Shown here piece by piece: positions 13,768-42,744 of a stretch of DNA of 42,744 nt. Position 1 is the stretch's first letter. Each line of letters begins with the position of its first letter. Both the position numbers and the translations under genes were made by a program. The notes under the pieces were generated by a model, which was not told the DNA's origin, made no database searches, and saw only the letters and a program-made list of their open reading frames with translations. This DNA is from a virus (Duplodnaviria; Caudoviricetes), in the IMG/VR virus record IMGVR_UViG_3300032116_000438, positions 1-42,744 of that record; one strand, 5' to 3'.

Positions 13768-14097
13768 ATGAGAATAGCTGATCCAAGAATGGTTGCAAAT
13801 ATGCCTCCACGCTCTCCAATGCCTCCACGTGCTGGTGCTGGTGGTGCTGGTTTTAGTGGCTTTGGGGGTAGTGGGTCTGGTAATCCTGTAAAGGGTGGTA
13901 TGGCTGGTATGATTGGTGCTGGGCTTAATACATTTCCGGCGAGTGGTCCACGTCCAGCTATGCCAATGCCGGGTTCTGGTGCACTAGGTAGTGGTATGGG
14001 TGGTCCACGTCCACCAATGCGCGGCTTTAAAAAGGGCGGCTCTGTTAAAGGTAAATCTGTACCACAGTCTCAAAAGAAGAATCGTAAAAAAGGCTAA
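13768..14097 (+). CDS. Low-complexity Gly/Pro/Met-rich protein with FKKGGSV motif
   Basis: ORF with GGGGA RBS, in operon. Confidence 0.65.
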   Translation: MRIADPRMVANMPPRSPMPPRAGAGGAGFSGFGGSGSGNPVKGGMAGMIGAGLNTFPASGPRPAMPMPGSGALGSGMGGPRPPMRGFKKGGSVKGKSVPQSQKKNRKKG

Positions 14098-14099
14098 CG

Positions 14100-14432
14100 A
14101 TGATCAATCGTAGTTCAATGTCTCATCAAATCGAAAAGGGAGTACGTAAAGTGCGTGGAATGGGTAAAGCAATGAAGGGTGGCGGTTGCGTCACTGGTAA
14201 GGGTTACAAGCGTGGCGGTATGGTTGCCAACGCCGACGACAGTATGATGGTCGCAGGTAAGGCAGGGATGGCTGCTAAGACGGGTAAAGCACCAAAGACA
14301 CTCCGTGGTAAGGCTCGTCCTGCAATGGCTCCTAAGCCCATGCAGAAGGCTATGTCGCCACAGATGCCAATGCCTCCAATGTCGGATCAGATGATGCGTT
14401 ATGGCGGTATGGTTAAGGGAAAGATGAAATAA
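14100..14432 (+). CDS. Basic Met/Gly-rich protein with repeated xxGGxV motifs
   Basis: Contains MKGGGCV, YKRGGMV and MRYGGMV. The start could instead be GTG at 14151, after GGAG. Confidence 0.65.
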   Translation: MINRSSMSHQIEKGVRKVRGMGKAMKGGGCVTGKGYKRGGMVANADDSMMVAGKAGMAAKTGKAPKTLRGKARPAMAPKPMQKAMSPQMPMPPMSDQMMRYGGMVKGKMK

Positions 14433-14587
14433 TGCCCTTGGGTAAAGATGTATCTAAAAACATCAGGGAACTGATGCGCGATAATCAGAAGACTGGCAAA
14501 GAACGTGGCATGGGTGGAAAGCCTCGGTCACGTAAGCAAATGGTTGCTATCGCACTACAAGCTGCTGGTAAGAAGAAAAAGCGTTAA
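14432..14587 (+). CDS. Small basic phage protein (not in ORF track)
   Basis: MPLGKDVSKNIRELMRDNQKTGKERGMGGKPRSRKQMVAIALQAAGKKKKR, 51 aa; S.NI.EL...KQ.VAIAL motif; TAATG overlap. Confidence 0.75.
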   Translation: MPLGKDVSKNIRELMRDNQKTGKERGMGGKPRSRKQMVAIALQAAGKKKKR

Positions 14588-14673
14588 TACAGTATATACT
14601 TTCGTTAGCCAAAGTATTGCGTTTAAAATACTATATGATTACTTGATATATAGTGTTAAAACGTGAGAACAAA

Positions 14674-16916: not shown

Positions 16917-17459
16917 ATGGCTGCTTATGGCTTTAAGCCCCACCGCCACCTTTCGGGTGGTGTAATTCGCGCACAGGAATACCTTATTTCTGCTGCGTAC
17001 ACGACTAAAATCCACACTGGTGCTCCAGTAAAAATCGTTTCGGGTTATATCAACCTTGCAGCGGCTGGTGACACTATGGTTGGTATCTTCGGAGGTGTCT
17101 CTTATGTCAACTCCGCAGGTGAGACGAAGTTCTCTCGCTATTGGACTGGTGAAGCAAGTGCAACAAACATCAAGGCTTTTGTCTATGATGATCCTGATAT
17201 CTTGTTCTCCTGCTATGACGATGGTGTTTCAGACTACTTGACACAGGCTGATGTTGGCACGACTGGCGATCATGTCGCTGGTACTGCAAGTGACATCACT
17301 GGCGTGTCTGGTGCGATGCTTGATACATCCACTGTCGGCACTGACGCTGGGTTCCGTTTGATTGGTCTTGTACCAGCACCGGGAGCCGCTTTTGGAACAG
17401 CAAATGGTACACAGGCAGAAGTGATCGTCTTGATCAACGAACACCTGTATGCTCGTTAA
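16917..17459 (+). CDS. Putative capsid decoration/cement protein
   Basis: YGFKP...G.F.G..Y...A.VYDDP...F...V.INEH; immediately before the major capsid gene. Confidence 0.7.
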   Translation: MAAYGFKPHRHLSGGVIRAQEYLISAAYTTKIHTGAPVKIVSGYINLAAAGDTMVGIFGGVSYVNSAGETKFSRYWTGEASATNIKAFVYDDPDILFSCYDDGVSDYLTQADVGTTGDHVAGTASDITGVSGAMLDTSTVGTDAGFRLIGLVPAPGAAFGTANGTQAEVIVLINEHLYAR

Positions 17460-30620: not shown

Positions 30621-30889
30621 GATTAGCTAACTTACTTAGTCCTGACAGTGTAGTTGCGTGGGCGAATGAGAGTGTTCGTATCCTAGAGTCAACGATTGAC
30701 GTTATAGAACGCACGAAACAGACAAAGGGTGCTATTGCACGGGTATCTTCTTTTGTGAAGACAGATCTTCCTAGTGCTGCTCAACCCGGTGAAATTATCT
30801 ATGTGTCGAATGAAACTGGCGGTGCAGTACTTGCCTTTTCAGATGGTACAAATTGGCGTCGTGTAACAGATAGAGCGGTGGTGGCATAA
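30617..30889 (+). CDS. Small tail-associated protein
   Basis: LPSA...G.IIYVSNE.GGAV.AFSDGTNWRRVTDRAVV. Confidence 0.75.
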   Translation: MRLANLLSPDSVVAWANESVRILESTIDVIERTKQTKGAIARVSSFVKTDLPSAAQPGEIIYVSNETGGAVLAFSDGTNWRRVTDRAVVA

Positions 30890-32721
30890 TGTGTGGTGGT
30901 AGTGAATCTAGTGGTGGTAATGGTAGCCCCGGAGCCAGTGGTGGTGATTCCTATGTTGACAGGTTAACTAGGACTATTGAAGCTAACCTAGCTAGGAATA
31001 ATGCCGGGCCTGTTAGCGGCGGTGGATCACTTTATGGTGATCGTGCTCCTGCATTTCGTAGTGAAGCTGCGAGTGGTGGTGGTGGATATCCTACAAACGG
31101 CGGCCCTGATCGTGATCGTAGCACTGGCGGCGGTAGTGGTATGGGCCGTGGCGGTGAAGATGTAGGTCGTCCCATCGGTGGTGGCAGCGGTATGGGTGGC
31201 GGTGGGGAAGATGTAGGTCGTTCCATCGGCGGCGGTGGTATAAGTATGCTTCCGGGTGGAATTCCGTCGAATGTTTATGATCCTAATGAAAGAAACTATC
31301 TTAGAAGTATTCCAGCCCCAATGCCAACTAGTGGTTCAACTGGTATGGGTGCAGGTTCTGGTACTCCTTTTAAAAGAGAAATTACAGATATTGATAAAGA
31401 TTATATGGCTCGTACCATTATAGGAGAGGCGGCTGGAGAACCAATAGAAGGTTGGAATGCCGTTGGTAATTCAATCTTAAATAGATTTTTAGCTGGTACA
31501 TATGGAAAATCTATTAAGGATATCACTCAAAGTGAGAATCAGTATAGTCCGTGGAATACAGAGGAAGGTACACAAAAACTTTTAAATATCTCTACAGATA
31601 GCCCACAATATAAAAAGGCTATGGATGTTGTTAACGAGGTAATGTCAGGTAAAAATGATATTACAGGTGGAGCAGTAAATTTTGCCAATGTAGATACTGT
31701 TCTTGGTCCGTATTCTGAAGCATCAGAAAAAACCAAAGCACGTGTTATTGAAGAGTCTGCAAGAGACGATGCTGTTAAGATTGGTCGCCATACCTTTACA
31801 AGCCCTGTTGGGTCAGAAGAAACAAAACCAGTACAATCTAGCTTTATAGATGGTTTAATTGATTCTGGAAAGAAACTATTTACTGGAAATTCAACAGACA
31901 ATCGTTCATTCGGTGACAAGGCTTTAGATTATGGAATCAATACAGCAGTAGGTGTTGCTTCTCCACCGCTTGGTCTTGCAAGTTTGGTATCTTCAATTTT
32001 TGGTGGTCCTACACCTGCTAGTTTATTGAGAAAAGGTTTGACTAGTGCAAGTTCTGCCGCACAAAAGGAATTTAATCGCGACAAGCAAATGACTTCTGAT
32101 GAAGTTGATTTAGCTTCAAGGTCAACTTATGGACCATATGGTAACTTAACTCGTGATCAATACCGTGAACAGTATGGTAACGGTGGCGGTGGGGGTGCTG
32201 ATAGACCTAAGAAAAAGAAAGCTGCAACTGAGCCTGTCGCTCCTGTAGCAGCACCTGCGGCAATACCAACGATTGTTCCTCAGTCTACAACGACTCCCGT
32301 AGCACCGGGTACTACACCTAATACTCGTAAGCTATCAGATGAAGAATATGCCGCATTGTCGCCTCTTGAGAAGGCTTACTATGACATGGGTATTTCTACA
32401 TATGGTACGTTTACGCCAGAGTATAACTACTTCCCTAACAGACAGCCTATCTTACTTCGTGAACCTGTTATTGCACCAGACGAGAAGAACAAGAAGCGTA
32501 ACGGTGGTCTTGTAAAGGGTCCGGGTACAGAAACGTCAGATAGTGTCCCAGCTTTGATTGGTGGTAAGACACCAGCAGCACTGTCAGATGGAGAGTTTGT
32601 ATTCACGGGCCGTGCAGTGCGCGGCATGGGAAATGGTGATAGGATGGAAGGTGCTCGTAAACTACACCAGATGATGAAGAAGGCCGAAGGCAATGCAAGT
32701 AAAGGTGGCCCAAGAAAATAA
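30889..32721 (+). CDS. Internal virion protein with SleB/Hydrolase_2 cell-wall hydrolase domain
   Basis: D.MARTIIGEA.GE..EG..AV...ILNR...QYSPWN...DITGGA..F...KIGRH.F (about 31390-31800); C-terminal GG.V.GPGT.TSDS.PA.....LSDGEFV; MCGG start. Confidence 0.85.
   Translation: MCGGSESSGGNGSPGASGGDSYVDRLTRTIEANLARNNAGPVSGGGSLYGDRAPAFRSEAASGGGGYPTNGGPDRDRSTGGGSGMGRGGEDVGRPIGGGSGMGGGGEDVGRSIGGGGISMLPGGIPSNVYDPNERNYLRSIPAPMPTSGSTGMGAGSGTPFKREITDIDKDYMARTIIGEAAGEPIEGWNAVGNSILNRFLAGTYGKSIKDITQSENQYSPWNTEEGTQKLLNISTDSPQYKKAMDVVNEVMSGKNDITGGAVNFANVDTVLGPYSEASEKTKARVIEESARDDAVKIGRHTFTSPVGSEETKPVQSSFIDGLIDSGKKLFTGNSTDNRSFGDKALDYGINTAVGVASPPLGLASLVSSIFGGPTPASLLRKGLTSASSAAQKEFNRDKQMTSDEVDLASRSTYGPYGNLTRDQYREQYGNGGGGGADRPKKKKAATEPVAPVAAPAAIPTIVPQSTTTPVAPGTTPNTRKLSDEEYAALSPLEKAYYDMGISTYGTFTPEYNYFPNRQPILLREPVIAPDEKNKKRNGGLVKGPGTETSDSVPALIGGKTPAALSDGEFVFTGRAVRGMGNGDRMEGARKLHQMMKKAEGNASKGGPRK
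31126..31236 (+). repeat. Tandem 51-nt (17-aa) coding repeat
   Basis: GGGSGMG.GGEDVGR.I occurs twice; GAAGATGTAGGTCGT at 31156 and 31207. Confidence 0.8.
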
Positions 32722-33130
32722 CATACTAGATATCACGAGGTTCTTAATAGATGAATTTCATGGTAGTTATATCGATACCTTTCCAAAAGTAGACTTTGAC
32801 AAGACTTTACTATATGTATGTAGACATGTGATCGAAGGTGTGGTATTTTTCATAGAGAAAGACCATAAGATTATTGGTGTAATTGCTGGGATTGAAGCTG
32901 AATACTGGTATTCGAAAGAAAAGTTTATTTCAGAGGGTTTCTTCTTCGTGCATCCTGACCACAGGAAATCACGCATAGCTTTTAAGCTGATACAAGAATT
33001 AAAGAAGTACGCGAAGAACCTTGATCTTCGACTCATATGCGGAGTCTCCAGTGGAGATGATGTTGAGAGAAAAGATAGGTTCTTTGAGTTTAATGGTTTA
33101 AACCGCATAGGCGGTATATACATATGCTAG
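32693..33130 (+). CDS. GNAT-family acetyltransferase (virion-module type)
   Basis: IIGVIAG....WYS.......FFFVHPDHRKS.IA.KLI...K.YA...FF...G...IGG. Confidence 0.85.
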   Translation: MQVKVAQENNILDITRFLIDEFHGSYIDTFPKVDFDKTLLYVCRHVIEGVVFFIEKDHKIIGVIAGIEAEYWYSKEKFISEGFFFVHPDHRKSRIAFKLIQELKKYAKNLDLRLICGVSSGDDVERKDRFFEFNGLNRIGGIYIC

Positions 33131-33139
33131 GAGTTTAAT

Positions 33140-34060
33140 ATGTGCTGTGGCGGTGCGAGTCAAACGATTCAAAAAACAGAAGTACCTAAATGGTTAGAGG
33201 ACTTCTATAAGAAAAATATTGCTGAGACAGAAAGTGTCTACGGCGCAGCAAAAGATCTTTATACCCAGAATCAAAATCAGCCTCAGTATGGTGGTCAGCG
33301 TATCCAAGGGTTTACGCCAGATCAGCTTAAGGCTATGGAAATGGCTCGTGGCTCTGCTGGTACTGGCCTTGCATCATTGCAAAAGGGTCAGGCTCTCGCT
33401 GAACAGTCTGGTCAGGCAATTACACCTGAGCAGATTCAGCAATACATGAATCCATATACTCAGCAGGTTCTTGACCCAGCTTTGCGTGAATCGGCAAAGG
33501 CTAATGAACAGCTTCGTCTTTCACAGCAGGGTAAAGCTGCACAGATGGGTGCGTTTGGTGGTTCTCGTGGTGCTATTCAGGCTTCAGAACGTGAACGTGG
33601 TTACACGCAGAACGTTGGTGATCTAACGTCGAAAGCCTACAGTAGCGCATTCACAGGGGCTATGGGACAGGCTAACGCTGATCGGGCAAGGCAGCTACAG
33701 GCTGGTCAGTTGTTGGGTCAGCAGGGTGTTCAGGAACAGGCTATGGGTGTGCAGGATATCAATACCATGCTTGGTACTGGTGCGATGCAACAGACTCAGG
33801 GACAGCGTGGACTTGATCTTGCGTATGGTAATTTTGTTGAACAACGTGAACAGCCATATCAGAACCTTGCTAGACTACAGGCTGGGCTTAAAGGTTCTTA
33901 CTATCAACCGGGTCCAACAAGCAGCACGACAACTACAACTGCTCCACAAGCAAATCCATTCTCGCAAATTGCTGGTGCTGGTCTTGCAGGTTTGTCGCTC
34001 TACGGTGGCTATGGTGGATTTTCACCGGGTGGTTTCGGCAGTATGACTCCAAGATATTGA
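33140..34060 (+). CDS. DNA ejection/pilot protein (putative)
   Basis: MCCGG..T....E.P.W, YGG.RI.GFTPDQ..A, YMNPY...V, GAFGGSR, G..QQ...Q..LD; Q/G/A rich. Confidence 0.8.
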   Translation: MCCGGASQTIQKTEVPKWLEDFYKKNIAETESVYGAAKDLYTQNQNQPQYGGQRIQGFTPDQLKAMEMARGSAGTGLASLQKGQALAEQSGQAITPEQIQQYMNPYTQQVLDPALRESAKANEQLRLSQQGKAAQMGAFGGSRGAIQASERERGYTQNVGDLTSKAYSSAFTGAMGQANADRARQLQAGQLLGQQGVQEQAMGVQDINTMLGTGAMQQTQGQRGLDLAYGNFVEQREQPYQNLARLQAGLKGSYYQPGPTSSTTTTTAPQANPFSQIAGAGLAGLSLYGGYGGFSPGGFGSMTPRY

Positions 34061-34074
34061 ACAAGGTAAAATAA

Positions 34075-36264
34075 ATGAGCATTGCTTCTCTGTTTAAACC
34101 AGTAGATTCTTCAAAGACACGTCTTCCAAGGACTGACGTACTGGAACGTGTTGCCAAATATGCTGATGGTAAATCAGTTGTGTCAAACTACTTTGACATC
34201 TCCACTGAAGAGCTTATCGATATGCTTCGTAAGGATTTAGTTCCAGCATCAGAAATAGAGTATGTCTCGGATATTGTGAGAACTCGTCTGTCTGGTGAGA
34301 CTACTGCTGCACCAAAGAAAAGTGTTGGCGAAACTATTAAGAATACTGCTAAGGAGTTTACAGTCTCTGATCCCACGAAGGATTTTATTACACCTGAATC
34401 AGTGGTTAATAGTGCCAAAGGTTTTATTGACGCATCTTCGGCTCCAAGTGGTTTTGAACGTGGCAATTACCTTGAGTCATTGATTGGTAGTGGTGAAACT
34501 GGTGGTGCTCCGCAGCGTGGGTCACCCGCCAAGGACAAGGATTATACTGATCCACTCAATGCTCGTCCAGATGCACCACCAGCACGTCTTGGGCTAGAGG
34601 GACTAACTCCGGGTCGTAGACCTTCCGGTGGTATGAGTTATACGCCTGAAGCACCAGAAGAAAATAGACCTAAACAAGATTACTTTGCAAGATTAAGATC
34701 TGGTGGTGCTCGTCCTGAAGGGGAAGCGTCTGGGTTTCCTGTTGCTATTGCTCCGGGTGGTGCTCGTCCTGAAGGAGAAGCGTCTGGGTTTCCTGCAGCA
34801 TCTCAATCTCAAATTGATGCATATAAGTTAAAGCCAGACGCAGACCGTGTTGCTCGTGGTCTTGATAGTCTGCAGAGTCTTAAAGATTCTCGTACTGCAT
34901 CTATTATGGCTGAAAATCTTGGCGGTTCTGATGCTATTAAAGTAGACCAAGTTAAATCTGCTAATAAACCCGGAGAAGATACTGCAGCAACATCAGAACT
35001 TACTCGTATGTCGAGTCCAGACCCAAGAAACTTAGAAAATACTGGATTAATTGATACACTTAAAAGGTATTTGGGACCAACTCCAGTTCAGCAATATAAA
35101 AAAGAAGTTAATCAAGATATTATAGAGAAGGATAAGGCAGCAAGAAGGGATGACCAAATACAGAGTCAACGCCTTGGTCTTGGCATGGCTCCTCCTCCTA
35201 GTGGTCCAGTTTATCCTGTAAAAAAAGGAACATCATTTACAGAGTTTCTTTATGGTAGACCTGAAGCACAAAGGATGGAAGAAGAGGCAATAGCAACTGC
35301 CGCCTCCGAGGCCGCTGATAAAGCAACCACAGATCGAATGAATGCTAGAGAGGCTGGTATCTCTGCCCTTTCATCAAATGTTGGTACTGCAACTGATCAG
35401 TCAGGTGGTATTGTTCCTCGCGGTGTTGATCCTACTGGTATCGGTAGGGATTCTACTCCTACTCCTGCCTTTGTCGCGGGTACTGATCCTACTAGGGTAA
35501 CTTCGGCTCCTTCGACTTCTTCGCAGCCTTCGGTTACTCCTCCTGCATTTCGTAGTGGATTGGATGATAAACCTACTAAGGACGACAAAAAGGCCATTCA
35601 GGAAACTGCAACAGAAGTAGCAAAGAATCCATCTGTTGGTGGTATTCAGTCGTTGTTTGAACAAGCTGGTTTCAGTGACGCTTTACTGCAGCTTGGTCTT
35701 GGCATGATGGCATCTAAGAATCCAGACTTCCTTGGTGCTCTTGGTGAGTCTGGACAGGGTGCTGTTGCTCTTATGGCAAAGCAACGCGAAGAGGCTAAGA
35801 AGGCAAAGCTAGAAGCAGATAAATTGGATCTTGAAAAGCAACGTAATGCCATTTATGGAAGGTCTGTTGATAACGCTGCTACAACAGATAAACGTCCAGC
35901 AATAGTGCAGACTTCAGAAGCATATTCAACAGCAATTAAAACGGCTAAAGAACAAGCAAAAAACAATGAGTTTGATACCACTGAACAGTTTATGGCACGT
36001 GACTATGCTTCTAAGCTTCTTGTTCCTGCTGCTCAAGAAGCTGCACAAAAGGCTGCAATTGCATGGGATAAAATATATGACGGTCTTTTGTCTTCTAAAA
36101 AGAAGGAGTATGAAGAGAAAAACCCTAAAGATGCTTATGTGAATAAAGCATATCAAGCATCACTTCAGCAAAACCCAACACTGTATAAGCTACTTAATAT
36201 AGGGGTTCCTACTGAGGAAAATACAGTTAAAAAGTTTAATCTTGCTACTGGTACTATAAATTAA
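34075..36264 (+). CDS. Internal virion/ejection protein
   Basis: 729 aa, largely low complexity; LLQLGLGMMAS..P.FLGALG..G hydrophobic segment followed by a coiled coil. Confidence 0.75.
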   Translation: MSIASLFKPVDSSKTRLPRTDVLERVAKYADGKSVVSNYFDISTEELIDMLRKDLVPASEIEYVSDIVRTRLSGETTAAPKKSVGETIKNTAKEFTVSDPTKDFITPESVVNSAKGFIDASSAPSGFERGNYLESLIGSGETGGAPQRGSPAKDKDYTDPLNARPDAPPARLGLEGLTPGRRPSGGMSYTPEAPEENRPKQDYFARLRSGGARPEGEASGFPVAIAPGGARPEGEASGFPAASQSQIDAYKLKPDADRVARGLDSLQSLKDSRTASIMAENLGGSDAIKVDQVKSANKPGEDTAATSELTRMSSPDPRNLENTGLIDTLKRYLGPTPVQQYKKEVNQDIIEKDKAARRDDQIQSQRLGLGMAPPPSGPVYPVKKGTSFTEFLYGRPEAQRMEEEAIATAASEAADKATTDRMNAREAGISALSSNVGTATDQSGGIVPRGVDPTGIGRDSTPTPAFVAGTDPTRVTSAPSTSSQPSVTPPAFRSGLDDKPTKDDKKAIQETATEVAKNPSVGGIQSLFEQAGFSDALLQLGLGMMASKNPDFLGALGESGQGAVALMAKQREEAKKAKLEADKLDLEKQRNAIYGRSVDNAATTDKRPAIVQTSEAYSTAIKTAKEQAKNNEFDTTEQFMARDYASKLLVPAAQEAAQKAAIAWDKIYDGLLSSKKKEYEEKNPKDAYVNKAYQASLQQNPTLYKLLNIGVPTEENTVKKFNLATGTIN
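34702..34795 (+). repeat. 40-bp near-exact direct repeat (54-nt period)
   Basis: 34702-34741 and 34756-34795 match at 39/40 and encode GGARPEGEASGFP. Confidence 0.85.
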
Positions 36265-36286: not shown

Positions 36287-39200
36287 ATGCCAACACAAGT
36301 TGATATTCCGGGAATTGGTATTGTTGAATTCCCTGATGGGATGACTGATGATCAGATTTCTCTTGCTATTAAAAGAGATATCTTAAAGCAAGAACCAACT
36401 CCTGTAGTTGCTCCACAAGCAGCACCAGAACCTCCTGCTGAAGGTTTTGTAGCGCGTACCACTACGGCTCTTGGAGATGTCCCAGAAGCTATTGCTCGTG
36501 GCTACTATGGTGCAAAGACTGGACTAAATGTTCTTGGTCTTGAGACTGGACTTCTAACCCCTGAAGAAGCTGCTGCTAATATTGCTGCTAGTACTGAAGC
36601 TGCAAAGCAATATGCTATGCCCGAATCAGTTCGTAAGGGTATGGAAGAGATTCAAAACGCTCAAGGGTGGAAAGAGACAGGTCTTGCACTTGCAAGAAAC
36701 CTTGACGTAATTCCTTCTGTCCTTGGTGAAAGTATTCCTGCATCTGCAACATCAATTGGTACTGGTCTTATTGGTGGTTTGCTTGGTGCTGTTGCTGGAC
36801 CTGTTGGTGCAACTGCTGGTCTTTCTACTGGTGTTGGTGTTGGTTCTGCCGCGACAGAATATGCAAGTTCTCTTAATCAATTTCTTACGTCTAAAGGCGT
36901 TAACACGTCTGACCCAGATCAGTTAAAGGCAGCTTTCTCTAATCCAGACCTAATGTCAGAAGCACGTAATGATGCCGCAACTCGTGGTATTGCTGTTGGT
37001 GCATTTGATGCTCTATCTGCTGGTATTGCTGGACGGTTATTTGCTCCAGTTAAGGGAGCATTGGGTGACAAGGCTCTTGGTACTGTTGCTGGAACTGGTG
37101 CAGAAATTATTAGCCAAGCTGGTGCTGGTGCTGGTGGTGAAGCTGCTGCACAATTAGCAACAGAAGGTAAAATTACATCTCCCGGAGCAGTTGCTCTTGA
37201 AGCAGTGGGTGAAATTGTTCCCGGTATTGCTGAGGCTGCTATCAGCAAGGCAACTGGTGCTCGTACTACTGCAGAGTCACCTATTCCCCCACCATCTTCT
37301 CTTCGCGAACAAGCACTAGTTGAGTTCTATAAAACACCCGGTGCAACAGAAGTTGCTACTGAGGCTGACCGTATTTCCACTGAACAACTCGCGGCTCAAG
37401 ACAAAGCATATAATGATAGTCTTGCTGCTGCGACACCTACTGCGGTAGTTCCACCTACTACAACAGAATATGGTGCTGCTGCCGTATCTACGGCTGTACC
37501 TACTACAGAACAACCTGCTGCTACACCAATTCCACAAACTACAACAGAGTTTGGTGCTGCTACTACTCCTACTGCTAAAGAACCTGCTGCTCCAGCAGTG
37601 CAGAGTGATTCAGTTAAACTGGCAAATATCTACATTGACAAGTTGACAGAGCAGAATCGCCCTGAGTTGGTTAACAAGGTTCGTGCTATCATTGCTACCA
37701 ACGATGATACCATTATTAACACTGGTCTTAGTGCTGTAGATACTGTCTATGACATGATCAAGAGTGGTACGTTAGATCCAAAGTTTGTTTCTCAAGGAAA
37801 GATTACTGACTCTCAAGGAAACGAAGTCGCTGGTGGTTATATGCCATCAACGCAGACTATCCGTTTAAACAACCTTGACTCTACCAGTGCATACTTTGAT
37901 CCTATCACCACTGCAGCACACGAAGCAGTTCATCATCTTGACAATCTAGCAACTGGTACAGACTTCGCTCGTGTCAGTGAGTCGATCTTTTCTCCTATTG
38001 CTTCAAAGTGGCAGGGCGGCAAGGATCTTTTGTCTTTGCTTCCTCGTTCTGTAAAGTCACAATACGGCAAGGCTGGATTAGAATACCTAGAAAACCAACT
38101 TGCAAATATACCAGAAGGTGAGAAAAACCCATACGAGGTTCGTGCTTATCTTATCGGTGCTCGTACACACGACAGAATGTATGGAACGACTCCAAAGAAT
38201 AGAAACTTTATTGGTAAGGTTCTTGACTTTGGGGCTGAGTTCGTGGAGCGTTTCGCGAATAAGATTTCTGGCGTTGGCTGGACATCTGCAGGTGACACAC
38301 TCAATGCTATTTCCTCTGGCAAGTTGAGTCAGGGACTGATGAACCTTGGTATCGTAGCCAACCCACAGGCTACCGCCCAGAAGCCTCCAGCAGCCCCACC
38401 GAAGCCTCCAGCAGCACTAGCAGATGCAACTGCACCTACTGTAGAAGAAGCCGCTGTACAGCCTCCTGTGGAAGAGGTTATTCCACCTAAACCTAAAGGT
38501 AAGAAAAAGTCAAAAGCTGCACCTACTGTTGATGAAAATGCTCCTATTACAGAATACGATAATGAGCCATATGTTTCGCCATATGGTTTAAAACCCCCTG
38601 CTCCTCCTGTTGTTGAACCTAAAACTGAATCTGATGAAACTCGCATTGCTGCGGCGATTGATGCGGGGGAATATTTTTCTCGTGCATCATTTGCTAAAGA
38701 TACGAAGATTCCTAATAGTCGTAATGGTGAGTTCTTTGGAAAAGGAATCACGAATGAAGAGGCTATGTCTCTTACGAGGAGATTAGGAACAGGTATTAAG
38801 CCGGGTCGTATTTATCTTCCTGAAGGGGATGATACAAGAGGCAGAGCACATATTGAAAAACAAGGTCATATCCCAGAATTGCAAGACATTGGCTTTAATG
38901 GAATAGTAGACGCTCTCGAATATGTTACTTCAAAAAGAGAAAATAACGACTTCAATATTGGAGGTGGAACTAGCTATGTCATTTCTGCAATTAAGAAGGT
39001 CAACGGCAAGGATGTAAAAATTTTTGCTGCTATTGCACCAGATCTTAATGACACGTCAAAACACTCTGTTATTACCTTGTATCCTAGCACTGGTAAAAAA
39101 CCATCTGAGCGCGGTGCTACTCAAGTCGATAGGGGTACGTCTGAGCGTATGAAGTCTCTTACACCTGAACAACGCCGTGCAATGATTATGAACAAGGAAC

Positions 39201-42200
39201 AGTTCTCTCGTGCTGCTGCTCAGACAAGTGCAAACGTTGAAGAGTTCAAGAGTTGGTGGAAGCGAAGCAAAGCTGTAGACACCAATGGTGAACCAAAACG
39301 CTTCTATACTGGAAAAGCAACTACCCGCTTGGATAAAGATGGTAAGCCATTCAAGTCCTTTACTAGGGCTGGATCTGGTGTAATGTTGGATGCGATGGGT
39401 AAGCCTATTCCGGGTATGAAAGGGCCATTCTACTTTAGTCCTGATGCACCTTTTGCTGATCAGTTTGCGATGCGGCGATTGTCTCAAAACGACTTTAAGG
39501 AAAATAAGGTTAATCAAGCGAATGACGGTGGTAGGATGATTCCAGTCTTCCTGTCAGTACAAAATCCGTTTGACTTTGACAATCCAGAGCACGTTGCTCG
39601 GATCATGCAAGATCAAATATTAAAGTCTGATGTGCTGAGAGGTCGTATTCAGAAGCGTCTTATTGAAGATGGCTTCTGGAAAGAGATTGAAAAAACAGCC
39701 GTTCAAGGTGCAATTAGACGCTCTGGTTTTGACGGGTTCTATCTTACAGAAACAATCCCTGAATACAACGACAACAACGAGCCTACAGGCAAAGAGATCA
39801 CTTCAAAAAACCTAGCCGTTTATAATCCTAAGCAAATCAAGGGTGTATTCAACGAATTCGCTCCCGGAACAGCAGAGTCAGAACAATTCTCTCGTGCTCG
39901 TGCTACTGGTGATCAATTCAGCACTGACATGAAGTCTAGATCAGATAGGAAGTTTGGTGTTTATCCTTACTTGAGAGCATTTACTAACGTTTTATTTGAT
40001 CATAAGCGCAAGATCATGGCTGGTGTAAATCCAAACAATGCCGCTTTACAGATTCAATACTTAAACGAACTAGAGCGTAACTATCCTAACCCACTGGTCG
40101 ATGCTGAGACATTTACAACAATGGCTTCTGATGCATTTGGCTCTGCTGTAGTAGATAGTTCTGTTCCACTTCCTCCATATAACGCTATTCGGATGGTTCA
40201 AGATCCTACCATTATCGAACAACAAATTGGTAGAATGAGTCCAAGTCAGCGACAGATGGCTGAAGATGGATTTAAACTTGGTAAGCGTGTCAAGGCAGCG
40301 TATGTAAATGGTAAGATGACTCCAAGTCATACCGCAAAGTTAGTACTTTGGGGTATATTGAGCCGTGGTGTTAGCCCGTTCATTCAAGAAAGTGCTTTCC
40401 TTGATGTAGTAACAGAACGTGGTAACAAGGCTGGTATTGGATATTTTATTGAATCTGCTCTTAATGGTGAGTTCAATAAACGGGAATACCTTGATTGGTC
40501 CAACATGATTATGCCTGAGTCATCTCCGGGCAATTCAACAAAGCATAACCTTAATGGCTTTGGTGACTCACTTATGAAGTTATCTGAGACTCTTCCATCT
40601 GGAAAGACACTGCTTCAAGAGTTGCATGATATGATTGCTGACTATAGATTGTCAGGTAAAGAAATTCGTCGTCGGTTCCATAGCATTAATACTGGTATTG
40701 GAATTAATAACAAAGTTCTTTCATTCGTGCTTTTGGTTTCTGGTCGTACTGATGTTGTTGTTTTGGATCGTGTGCAAATGCGTAATCTATTCAATGACGG
40801 TCGTTTTGATTCTTATAATCTTTACGATGGCGAAAAAATACCAAAGATGGTGAAGAACCAAAAGACAGGCAAGACTGCCCTCAAGGATGTTCAAGATGTT
40901 GGTACAAACATGAACAAACTTGGTGATGATATGGTTGGTCTGATGTATTACGAAGCCATTGAACGTGGTATGAAAGATGCCATCAAGACGGCTTATAATA
41001 ATCTTGGTCGTGGTGATGGGTCACCGGGGCAATTCCATTGGGAAAGTTGGGTTGCTACTTCTGCACAGGAAGTCGATCATGGTAGCATCGAAGGTATTCT
41101 CCGCGATGCTCTTGGTGTGGTAGATCCATACTATAATATTAATACACGTCAAGGAAAGTATGACGAGTTTTCATCTGGTATGATATATGGCTATGATAAA
41201 AACGCAGCACCATATGTTGACCTTCCAGATGGATTAGGAAACTTCTTTAGGTTTACACCATCAGATGGTAAAGAAGTTCTTGATCAAGTAAAGAAACCAG
41301 CGAATGGTATAGTCCCTGAAAACTTTAAGGTGAGTCAAAATGTCGAAGGACCGTGGTACAACAACAAACAAGTCAACAAAGCCAAGCTTAACCAACTATA
41401 CTCCGAAAGAGGAACCTTGGTTTACGGAGATAATGCAGGACTTGGCAAAGCTGACACCGATGTCATCGGACGCAGAAACACAGCAGCCGCCACCGCCTCC
41501 GCAGTAGAACGTGCAATTGCTAGGTCTGGTGAGCAATTCTCTCGTGCTGCTGCACAGACAGGTGAGAACGTTGAAGAATTTAATACATGGGGAAGAAATG
41601 CAATAGTATCTAACGATATTGGAGAACCGCGTCGGTATTATACCGGAACGTCAAAAGATACTATTTTTAAAAAGTTCAAAGTTGAACGACATGGTGCTTG
41701 GTTTGCTTCTGATCCTGAAACAGCATCTATGTATGCTGAACGAAATGATAGCCAAGGATATAAATACGATATTGAGCGAGGGTTCTTTGAAATAAACACC
41801 GCAAGTCGTGTCATACCTGCGTTTTTAAGAGCCGAAAATCCATATACAGGTGATTTACCTTCAGAAGCAAAGAAAGATAATTATAAAAAGGCTCAGTCTG
41901 ATTGGTTTGATAGTCTTCGTAGGCAGGGATATGACGCTTGGATTCCAGAAAGCATCAATGGGAACCTTGTTGTTATATTAAAAGATCCAAATCAAATCAA
42001 AGGTGCGTTTAACGAATTTGCACCGGGAACCGCAAAGTCGGAACAGTTCTCTCGTGCAAATCAACGACAGAAGGATATCCTTAAAAGTATGATGGCTCCA
42101 CCTAATAATAAGGGTGGCATTGAAAAGTTTGCGTCAGAAGTGTATGTAAAGGATGGTAGCCTTGGCAGTGGTCTTGGTGGACTAAAGGTTAGGTTCATTC

Positions 42201-42744
42201 AGGGTCTGTTTGATTATCTCGCACCACTAAAGCTTATTGCACCAAATGCATATAAGAAGTTCCGCATTGCCAATAACTCAGCAAGTATTGCTCTAAGTGT
42301 TATAGCAAACGGACCTATTGAGCGTTTCAAGGGTGGCTACAGGACTATTCCCGGTGCAAAGTCCCTTACTGCTATTATTGATGGTATTGGTAAAAAGTAC
42401 GGCCCAGAGGGTGTTCATCTCTGGACTGGTTACATGGCTGCTAAAAGGTCAAAGCGTCTTATCCTCGAAGGAAGAGAGTCGTTGATGACACAGGCAGACA
42501 TTGATGAGATGCTTGATCTCATTAATCAATACCCTGAATTCGAGACAGCACGAAAAGAATGGATAGAGTTCAATGACAAAAATGTTGACTTTGCTCGTGC
42601 AAATGGAACTCTTACTGCAAGAGAAGCAGCTTCTTGGAAGGCAAATGGTGATTACATTCCTTTCTATCGTGCTCTTGATGATGACGGTGGTCTTGTCGCT
42701 CCGGGTGTAGGAACACTTGCAAGACAGTCTGATGTATCCAAGAA
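36287..42744 (+). CDS. Giant polyvalent internal virion protein (>2150 aa, 3' partial): HExxH peptidase, BECR-type nuclease, ART, HhH-GPD glycosylase-like, ART, conserved C-terminal region
   Basis: Translated by hand with no stop from ATG 36287 (AGGA RBS) to the window end. N-terminal VEFPDGMTD.QI; Gly/Ala hydrophobic stretches; HEAVH at 37919; two ART-PolyVal-like domains; GIGINNK...LDR; DYIPFYR near the end, as in LPD38-type proteins. Confidence 0.9.
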   Translation, partial: MPTQVDIPGIGIVEFPDGMTDDQISLAIKRDILKQEPTPVVAPQAAPEPPAEGFVARTTTALGDVPEAIARGYYGAKTGLNVLGLETGLLTPEEAAANIAASTEAAKQYAMPESVRKGMEEIQNAQGWKETGLALARNLDVIPSVLGESIPASATSIGTGLIGGLLGAVAGPVGATAGLSTGVGVGSAATEYASSLNQFLTSKGVNTSDPDQLKAAFSNPDLMSEARNDAATRGIAVGAFDALSAGIAGRLFAPVKGALGDKALGTVAGTGAEIISQAGAGAGGEAAAQLATEGKITSPGAVALEAVGEIVPGIAEAAISKATGARTTAESPIPPPSSLREQALVEFYKTPGATEVATEADRISTEQLAAQDKAYNDSLAAATPTAVVPPTTTEYGAAAVSTAVPTTEQPAATPIPQTTTEFGAATTPTAKEPAAPAVQSDSVKLANIYIDKLTEQNRPELVNKVRAIIATNDDTIINTGLSAVDTVYDMIKSGTLDPKFVSQGKITDSQGNEVAGGYMPSTQTIRLNNLDSTSAYFDPITTAAHEAVHHLDNLATGTDFARVSESIFSPIASKWQGGKDLLSLLPRSVKSQYGKAGLEYLENQLANIPEGEKNPYEVRAYLIGARTHDRMYGTTPKNRNFIGKVLDFGAEFVERFANKISGVGWTSAGDTLNAISSGKLSQGLMNLGIVANPQATAQKPPAAPPKPPAALADATAPTVEEAAVQPPVEEVIPPKPKGKKKSKAAPTVDENAPITEYDNEPYVSPYGLKPPAPPVVEPKTESDETRIAAAIDAGEYFSRASFAKDTKIPNSRNGEFFGKGITNEEAMSLTRRLGTGIKPGRIYLPEGDDTRGRAHIEKQGHIPELQDIGFNGIVDALEYVTSKRENNDFNIGGGTSYVISAIKKVNGKDVKIFAAIAPDLNDTSKHSVITLYPSTGKKPSERGATQVDRGTSERMKSLTPEQRRAMIMNKEQFSRAAAQTSANVEEFKSWWKRSKAVDTNGEPKRFYTGKATTRLDKDGKPFKSFTRAGSGVMLDAMGKPIPGMKGPFYFSPDAPFADQFAMRRLSQNDFKENKVNQANDGGRMIPVFLSVQNPFDFDNPEHVARIMQDQILKSDVLRGRIQKRLIEDGFWKEIEKTAVQGAIRRSGFDGFYLTETIPEYNDNNEPTGKEITSKNLAVYNPKQIKGVFNEFAPGTAESEQFSRARATGDQFSTDMKSRSDRKFGVYPYLRAFTNVLFDHKRKIMAGVNPNNAALQIQYLNELERNYPNPLVDAETFTTMASDAFGSAVVDSSVPLPPYNAIRMVQDPTIIEQQIGRMSPSQRQMAEDGFKLGKRVKAAYVNGKMTPSHTAKLVLWGILSRGVSPFIQESAFLDVVTERGNKAGIGYFIESALNGEFNKREYLDWSNMIMPESSPGNSTKHNLNGFGDSLMKLSETLPSGKTLLQELHDMIADYRLSGKEIRRRFHSINTGIGINNKVLSFVLLVSGRTDVVVLDRVQMRNLFNDGRFDSYNLYDGEKIPKMVKNQKTGKTALKDVQDVGTNMNKLGDDMVGLMYYEAIERGMKDAIKTAYNNLGRGDGSPGQFHWESWVATSAQEVDHGSIEGILRDALGVVDPYYNINTRQGKYDEFSSGMIYGYDKNAAPYVDLPDGLGNFFRFTPSDGKEVLDQVKKPANGIVPENFKVSQNVEGPWYNNKQVNKAKLNQLYSERGTLVYGDNAGLGKADTDVIGRRNTAAATASAVERAIARSGEQFSRAAAQTGENVEEFNTWGRNAIVSNDIGEPRRYYTGTSKDTIFKKFKVERHGAWFASDPETASMYAERNDSQGYKYDIERGFFEINTASRVIPAFLRAENPYTGDLPSEAKKDNYKKAQSDWFDSLRRQGYDAWIPESINGNLVVILKDPNQIKGAFNEFAPGTAKSEQFSRANQRQKDILKSMMAPPNNKGGIEKFASEVYVKDGSLGSGLGGLKVRFIQGLFDYLAPLKLIAPNAYKKFRIANNSASIALSVIANGPIERFKGGYRTIPGAKSLTAIIDGIGKKYGPEGVHLWTGYMAAKRSKRLILEGRESLMTQADIDEMLDLINQYPEFETARKEWIEFNDKNVDFARANGTLTAREAASWKANGDYIPFYRALDDDGGLVAPGVGTLARQSDVSK
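38669..42058 (+). repeat. Five E(Q/Y)FSRA domain-delimiting repeats
   Basis: At 38669-38686 (EYFSRA), 39197-39214, 39881-39898, 41531-41548 and 42041-42058; DNA core TTYTCTCGTGCW in all five. Confidence 0.9.

Follow-up and report, generated by a model that had tools for sequence, protein, structure and literature searches.

Why would a phage protein carry the same short peptide at every border between its effector domains? The question is raised by a giant open reading frame (ORF) at the end of IMGVR_UViG_3300032116_000438, a Caudoviricetes record from IMG/VR that we analyzed in its entirety (42,744 nucleotides (nt); hereafter the window). The encoded protein consists, in order, of a hydrophobic N-terminus, a zincin-like domain, four payloads, and a conserved C-terminal module, and the peptide FSRA (the tag) stands at each payload border. 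Comparison with close relatives gives good support to the tag as a base-precise joint for payload exchange. From the sequences, we further judge it somewhat more likely than not that the tag is both a short-homology DNA joint and a cut site for the protein's own predicted zinc peptidase. The ORF and its parts, all on the plus strand and with lengths in amino acids (aa), are:

36287..42744, plus strand: giant polyvalent-protein ORF, the first 2152 of 2833 codons, with the 3' end past the contig end
36734..37246, plus strand: Gly/Ala-rich hydrophobic stretches (aa 150-320; hydropathy 1.2-1.6), predicted membrane or conduit role
37613..38365, plus strand: zincin-like metallopeptidase domain (aa 443-693), with HEAVH at 37919-37933 and the third ligand, E617, at 38135-38137
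38366..38668, plus strand: Pro/Ala/Glu-rich linker, of varying length among relatives
38669..38686, plus strand: junction 1, EYFSRA, by motif
38675..39202, plus strand: cassette 1 (176 aa), PBECR1-like predicted RNase fold, a lead only, from language-model features
39197..39214, plus strand: junction 2, EQFSRA, by motif
39203..39886, plus strand: cassette 2 (228 aa), ART-PolyVal, Pfam E 4e-11
39881..39898, plus strand: junction 3, EQFSRA, by motif, metagenome joints, and junction-pair comparison
39887..41536, plus strand: cassette 3 (550 aa), likely helix-hairpin-helix (HhH) glycosylase-like, by an invariant pattern and a sub-threshold Ogg-HhH match
41531..41548, plus strand: junction 4, EQFSRA, on the same three grounds as junction 3
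41537..42046, plus strand: cassette 4 (170 aa), a second ART-PolyVal, Pfam E 8e-13
42041..42058, plus strand: junction 5, EQFSRA, on the same three grounds as junction 3
42047..42744, plus strand: conserved C-terminal module, first 232 of 913 aa; the module contains LPD38

An unbroken ORF of more than 2150 aa, missing from the ORF track, had been noted in a first-pass annotation made from the letters of the window. It starts at 36287, stays open through 42742, and exits at the contig end after 2152 codons, and therefore escapes an ordinary ORF list. The full protein of 2833 aa was recovered from an independent contig that is identical over all 6458 shared bases, and a frameshift or fusion artefact was ruled out by independent contigs, both identical and related. 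By its domain content the protein is an LPD38-type phage polyvalent protein, which supports the polyvalent-protein assignment of the same annotation: it is a 2833-aa chain of disparate domains, in which ART-PolyVal occurs twice above the Pfam cut-off, LPD38 lies above the gathering cut-off in the C-terminal 913 aa of the full-length protein, a zincin motif is present, and HD_4 appears in relatives. Its gene stands in a late virion context.

Five copies of FSRA are found in the ORF, where 0.03 would be expected from composition. Their phenylalanines are aa 797, 973, 1201, 1751, and 1921 (nt 38675, 39203, 39887, 41537, and 42047), which leaves segments of 176, 228, 550, and 170 aa between tags. 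The annotation's claim that the motif marks each effector border and occurs nowhere else in the ORF was confirmed, and across all six frames of the window there is no further FSRA. The DNA pattern TTYTCTCGTGC occurs at the same five places only. None of the 35 other window ORFs contains FSRA, and FSR is found in one of them (ETKFSRY, in a 180-aa ORF before the capsid gene, 16917-17459), probably by chance.

To ask what happens at these borders in related phages, we took a close set of 12 sequences (seven proteins and five loci) whose C-terminal modules are 92-100% identical, cut them at the tag, and typed the pieces. Among the nine full-length close relatives there are seven different payload strings, each made up of 2 to 7 cassettes from a pool of 13 types, while the N- and C-terminal parts remain constant. 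Cassette 1 is missing from three of the nine, cassette 3 is swapped for a 743-aa cassette in some, and cassette 4, among these close relatives, is seen in the window's arrangement only. At the DNA level, identity switches at the tag in 15 of 18 junction pairs. In all seven clean pairs that share their left side, identity over 54 nt drops from 0.85-1.00 to 0.15-0.39 across the tag, and the exact match stops 11-12 nt after the start of the F codon. Eight pairs that share their right side mirror this, with a left identity of 0.17-0.41 and a right identity of 0.61-0.94. The three exceptions comprise a pair with shared ART homology on the left, one with differing linker ends, and one with intermediate identity on both sides.

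The same joints were observed in lake metagenome assemblies. At 92% likeness the tag is touched by all 4 loose ends and all 3 joints, and at 88% likeness by 4 of 10 loose ends and 4 of 6 joints. At either level, joints with a short side can stem from other organisms. Depth differences between cassettes, being contig-level figures, were left unused. In run X7, one contig tracks the window through junctions 4 and 5, and another departs at 41547 into a 275-aa cassette known from L006/L007; alternative joins therefore coexist within one sample. The proposal that the tag is a joint for swapping payloads is thus strongly supported by relatives and metagenome contigs alike, and the accompanying check, whether orthologue domain borders miss the tag, did not refute it.

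Is it the DNA or the peptide that is being kept? We counted codons in 28 junction copies from seven loci, representing 18 distinct junction types. F, S, and R are encoded by TTC, TCT, and CGT in 26, 27, and 26 of the 28 copies, and the full string TTC TCT CGT is present in 16 of the 18 distinct types, compared with 0.08 expected per junction from gene-wide codon use. This near-fixation of an 11-bp core suggests that the tag is likely a recombination joint; the copies are not independent, as crossovers in the core would themselves keep them uniform. In the close lineage, the E and Q of the tag are also kept, yet their codons vary as freely as they do on average in the gene; on inspection, this wobble led us to reject a palindromic recombinase site. 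We then compared 11 hand-picked distant genes with repeated tags, in which the same Ser codon is used in only 10 of 38 within-gene tag pairs and TCN and AGY codons are mixed among a gene's own copies in 6 of the 11 genes (four lineages). Tags that mix Ser codons in this way argue for selection on the peptide independent of the DNA. Taken together, the codon comparisons indicate that the tag is constrained both as DNA and as protein.

The residues that would be expected of a cutter are present in the same chain. The annotation had reported HEAVH near aa 545 with a downstream EVRA; we located the motif, the ORF's only HExxH, at aa 545 and the E of EVRA at aa 617. The zinc ligands H, E, H, and E (H103, E104, H107, and E175 of the domain) are invariant in all 10 aligned homologues. 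A model of the domain (predicted local distance difference test score (pLDDT) 76) shows strands followed by helices, in keeping with the zincin hallmark of an HExxH helix and a downstream Glu behind a three-stranded sheet. The best whole-domain fold matches in VIA are zinc endopeptidases of the lethal-factor/Pro-Pro-endopeptidase type (Z 7.8, 7.1, and 6.3; the top match with a root-mean-square deviation of 4.7 over 163 aligned residues), which we regard as moderate support. The best Foldseek match has E 0.012 and none falls below E 0.001; the domain has no Pfam match above cut-off and no PDB sequence match. Homologue searches with the domain returned only 7 and 9 proteins. When the domain was modeled in complex with zinc and a junction peptide of 34 aa, the prediction scored 0.65 against 0.86 for a control, and counts neither way. 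We describe aa 443-693 as an intact candidate zinc peptidase, predicted from ligands and fold.

How widespread is such a tag? From 120 proteins and the 94 of 105 loci with long frames, we built 85 clusters. In a stretch 20-75 aa before the C-terminal module, an interval chosen after viewing the cluster data, [FY]SR is present in 13 of 68 anchored distant clusters (1.3 expected) and [FY]S[RLKA] in 22 of the 68 (4.6 expected). Eight control patterns show no such enrichment there, and an unguided ranking of tripeptides places FSR first. Among ART rows, 9 of 27 have [FY]S-x on both flanks, and, once the duplicate from the window's lineage is removed, 7 of the 8 rows have the same third residue on the two flanks (permutation p 0.001). 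Lineage-specific dialects of the tag (FSRA, FSAAP, FSKL, YSL, ESRR, and KFSR) repeat within single proteins. The peptidases closest to that of the window (P0009, P0010, P0122, and P0123) accompany [FY]SRA. We also considered a further tag located 70-120 aa before the zincin motif, and dropped it because only 9 of 124 cases had one, against 6.7 expected.

These findings can be joined into one scheme. A payload would be swapped through a crossover in the 11-bp core, perhaps helped by an ERF annealing protein, and a crossover at that point would preserve the frame and put a tag on both sides of the newcomer. The chain would be threaded into the cell together with the DNA, where the zincin would fold in the cytoplasm and cut within or next to F-S-R. 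The freed ART-like, RNase-like, glycosylase-like, HD or GNAT-like modules could then act on the defence or metabolism of the host during the first minutes. ERF-type proteins promote short-homology recombination; in L018, a 62.5-kb relative, the giant gene is followed ~1.1 kb downstream by an ERF-family single-strand annealing gene (13866-14594, minus strand).

Several observations weigh against this scheme, or against its generality. Of the 68 distant clusters, 46 lack [FY]S[RLKA] before the C-terminal module, though many have looser forms. Only 9 of 82 clusters, two of them from the window's own lineage, have significant repeats of [FY]S-x, against 0-4 for controls. The presence of a zincin offers no contrast, since 53 of 57 clusters have the motif with or without tags. 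FSR accompanies several unrelated zincin clades, P0031 is tagged with no zincin detected, and P0022 and P0029 have altered active-site motifs (HDxxxH and EExxxH instead of HExxxH). The peptidase fold Z-scores are all below 8. Nor does the tag stand at every insertion, as the linker of P0006 and P0008 holds an untagged insert of ~100 aa, and no inner tag divides the 743-aa cassette, although this seems to consist of two domains. Finally, N4 virion RNA polymerase is packaged whole even though it contains an HExxH domain (PMC5512222; PMC13434306).

Could the tag instead be a mere scar of DNA recombination, its peptide a by-product of an in-frame 11-bp joint? The near-fixed F-S-R codons (26-27 of 28 copies each), the crossovers that map to the core, and the ERF gene downstream in L018 would all fit, but the distant genes that keep the peptide with differing Ser codons, and the E and Q that are kept despite free wobble in the close lineage, make this account quite improbable. 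If the peptide matters, it may still go uncut, as a binding or threading motif that docks the linkers on the C-terminal module or marks pauses in packing or ejection while the chain stays intact. Protein-level constraint alone does not imply cleavage, the tag is wider than any one zincin clade while the C-terminal module is common to all, and in the account of Iyer et al. N4 virion RNA polymerase, ArdC, and TraC1 travel full length (PMC5512222). On the other hand, up to seven payloads with differing likely targets, each flanked by the tag on both sides as release would need, together with invariant zinc ligands, lead us to consider an uncut tag unlikely.

A similarly small chance is left for the tag being cut by some other enzyme, either a protease of the host or a different phage protein, with the built-in zincin directed at a host protein or the cell wall. 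This would explain why FSR-type tags are found with several unrelated zincin clades and are retained by proteins whose zincin motif is altered or undetected; Iyer et al. allow that some such peptidases target host proteins (PMC5512222), and the phi24B authors propose peptidoglycan degradation (10.64898/2026.04.10.717836). Dialects that repeat within a protein (FSRA, FSAAP, FSKL, YSL, and ESRR) are more readily explained by a private enzyme than by a conserved enzyme of the host, however, and among the scanned window ORFs there is no separate protease called and no FSRA in the other 35. Cleavage of the tag by the built-in zincin thus remains the best reading and, in our estimate, a plausible one, backed by the protein-level constraint, the invariant zinc ligands, and the fold likeness to sequence-specific zinc endopeptidases. 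We can suggest only tentatively that this dual-coded junction extends across phage polyvalent proteins, such that a recombined domain arrives both in frame and releasable, in lineage-specific dialects. With equal reserve, such proteins might be seen as plug-and-play injection magazines that are reshuffled within living phage populations.

What the payloads themselves do can be judged in part, and here the annotation stood only partly. Its BECR-like segment, cassette 1, is PBECR1-like by language-model features (Atlas scores of 0.90-0.91 to PBECR1 clusters) but has no Pfam match. Its two ART segments, cassettes 2 and 4, both exceed the Pfam cut-off, whereas the catalytic strand-1 His is absent from each: both copies read YTG, with Thr in place of the His, and the relative P0007 reads YHG. 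The catalytic triad of ART-PolyVal is given as H-Y-D (PMC5512222). Both copies still belong to the fold family, but because the strand-1 His of this triad is Thr in each, their activity is uncertain, and they may be inactive, NAD-binding, or chemically altered.

For the glycosylase-like region, cassette 3, we found 18 homologues that belong to other proteins, with matches within query residues 24-548. The cassette keeps a GI..K / D-R pattern (G272, I273, K276, D294, and R295) that is invariant in 18 of 18, but Ogg-HhH matches the family only below threshold (E 0.26, in 2 of 18 members). The glycosylase reading leans in part on what we take to be the HhH catalytic pattern, a Lys followed by a downstream Asp. 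PDB sequence searches with cassette 3 gave nothing significant, and its single-sequence fold was unusable (pLDDT 33). The RNase and glycosylase labels are thus leads only. Relatives (L003 176-3958, P0004, and P0008) also carry an HD_4 hydrolase payload of 178-185 aa. Their further payloads are a two-part cassette of 743 aa, a ParB-like one of 181 aa, an ART-like one of 159 aa, a GNAT-like one of 143 aa, and one of 275 aa, where labels other than HD_4 were assigned by eye.

A number of smaller features were seen along the way. Upstream of the peptidase, 37460-37570 (aa ~392-427) holds the loosely tag-like twin TTTEYGAAA/TTTEFGAAT, which may reflect duplication of the linker or represent a site on the N side. 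Cassette 3 starts (39887-39930) with FSRARATGDQFSTD, in which a second, degenerate QFST follows nine residues past the tag and is perhaps a relic of the donor's own junction. The Pro-rich-linker insert of P0006/P0008 has short direct Pro-rich repeats on its flanks where a tag might be expected, as in a second insertion route. In IMG/VR, a 17-base tag pattern has 37 matching stretches; those outside the lineage were set aside as single copies with no similarity to the cassettes. They include an unrelated viral gene family (L109, L116, L118, L129, L131, and L142) with a single-copy HEQFSRAC encoded by the same 17-base pattern.

The giant gene stands last in a virion and ejection block, with terminase, portal, capsid, tail, and DNA ejection genes all upstream. 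It is immediately preceded by:

33140..36264, plus strand: two genes, the first of a DNA ejection protein family (PHROG 4287, E 1e-22), the second with no match

Directly before these ejection genes, 30889-33130 holds a 610-aa gene with a Hydrolase_2 cell-wall hydrolase domain and then a GNAT acetyltransferase gene. The N-terminus of the giant protein, described earlier as membrane-like, is Gly/Ala-rich and mildly hydrophobic over aa 150-320, which we predict to be a membrane or conduit part. Gene context and the virion protein phi24B gp47, discussed below, make it likely by analogy that the protein is packaged and injected with the DNA. Public sequencing runs containing the region are labeled freshwater or fungus metagenome.

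Self-processing of polyvalent proteins has been hypothesised since 2017, and the searched literature names no substrate site. In the gene described here, one exact site recurs five times, the candidate peptidase is intact, and the fragment to be tested is small. With the tag as a guide, uncharacterised payloads can also be excised computationally from giant phage proteins (13 types in one lineage), which is a route to new anti-defence effectors, and the base-precise reshuffling of arsenals within a phage population becomes visible. Should cleavage be confirmed, it would add a family of sequence-specific proteases, as well as a natural and modular chassis for protein delivery to bacteria.

How does this protein compare with known systems? 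Iyer et al. define the polyvalent-protein family, propose self-processing by its zincin metallopeptidase (MPTase), and note mosaicism (PMC5512222); their proteins resemble ours in size, in domain set (zincin MPTase, ART-PolyVal, PBECR, and LPD38), and in late virion position. The available text of that paper names no cleavage site or junction motif, whereas the window protein has an exact tag at each border that coincides, unlike in their account, with base-precise payload exchange among coexisting strains. We found no paper on a junction motif in polyvalent proteins in a search that covered the subscription literature thinly. Two LPD38 giant proteins carry payloads different from those of the window: PTXU04_00025 of the E. 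coli phage PTXU04, which is needed for infection (10.1101/2023.09.18.558157), and phi24B gp47, which is present in virions (10.64898/2026.04.10.717836). PTXU04_00025 is 28% identical to the window protein over the C-terminal module; its zincin motif is HExxxH, and a single candidate tag (QYSA) lies at aa 1297. The accessible parts of the two reports mention no processing of either protein (10.1101/2023.09.18.558157; 10.64898/2026.04.10.717836).

In the prohead maturation of the giant phage SPN3US, a short motif (AXE) likewise directs the cutting of head and ejection proteins, but there a separate protease, gp245, trims propeptides of many head proteins (PMC10052503). The window tag is instead confined to one gene, between domains. 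Polymorphic toxin systems also exchange payloads by recombination at a conserved joint, although they do so at one C-terminal tip and the window protein has several internal slots. In the partial genomes covered, we found no silent cassettes with the core: it lies solely inside the giant gene in the window, G001 (54% complete), and 10 of the 12 close loci, and is absent from the other two.

In design, the window protein with its predicted cutter resembles MARTX toxins, which have constant ends, variable central effectors, and a built-in protease (PMC2900308). RTX repeats and the cysteine protease domain were not found by Pfam in the full-length window protein. The MARTX enzyme is a cysteine protease with proven cutting (PMC2900308), whereas here a zinc peptidase is predicted to cut after delivery by a phage into bacteria. 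By this analogy, the window protein is not a member of the MARTX family but works like a MARTX-style magazine.

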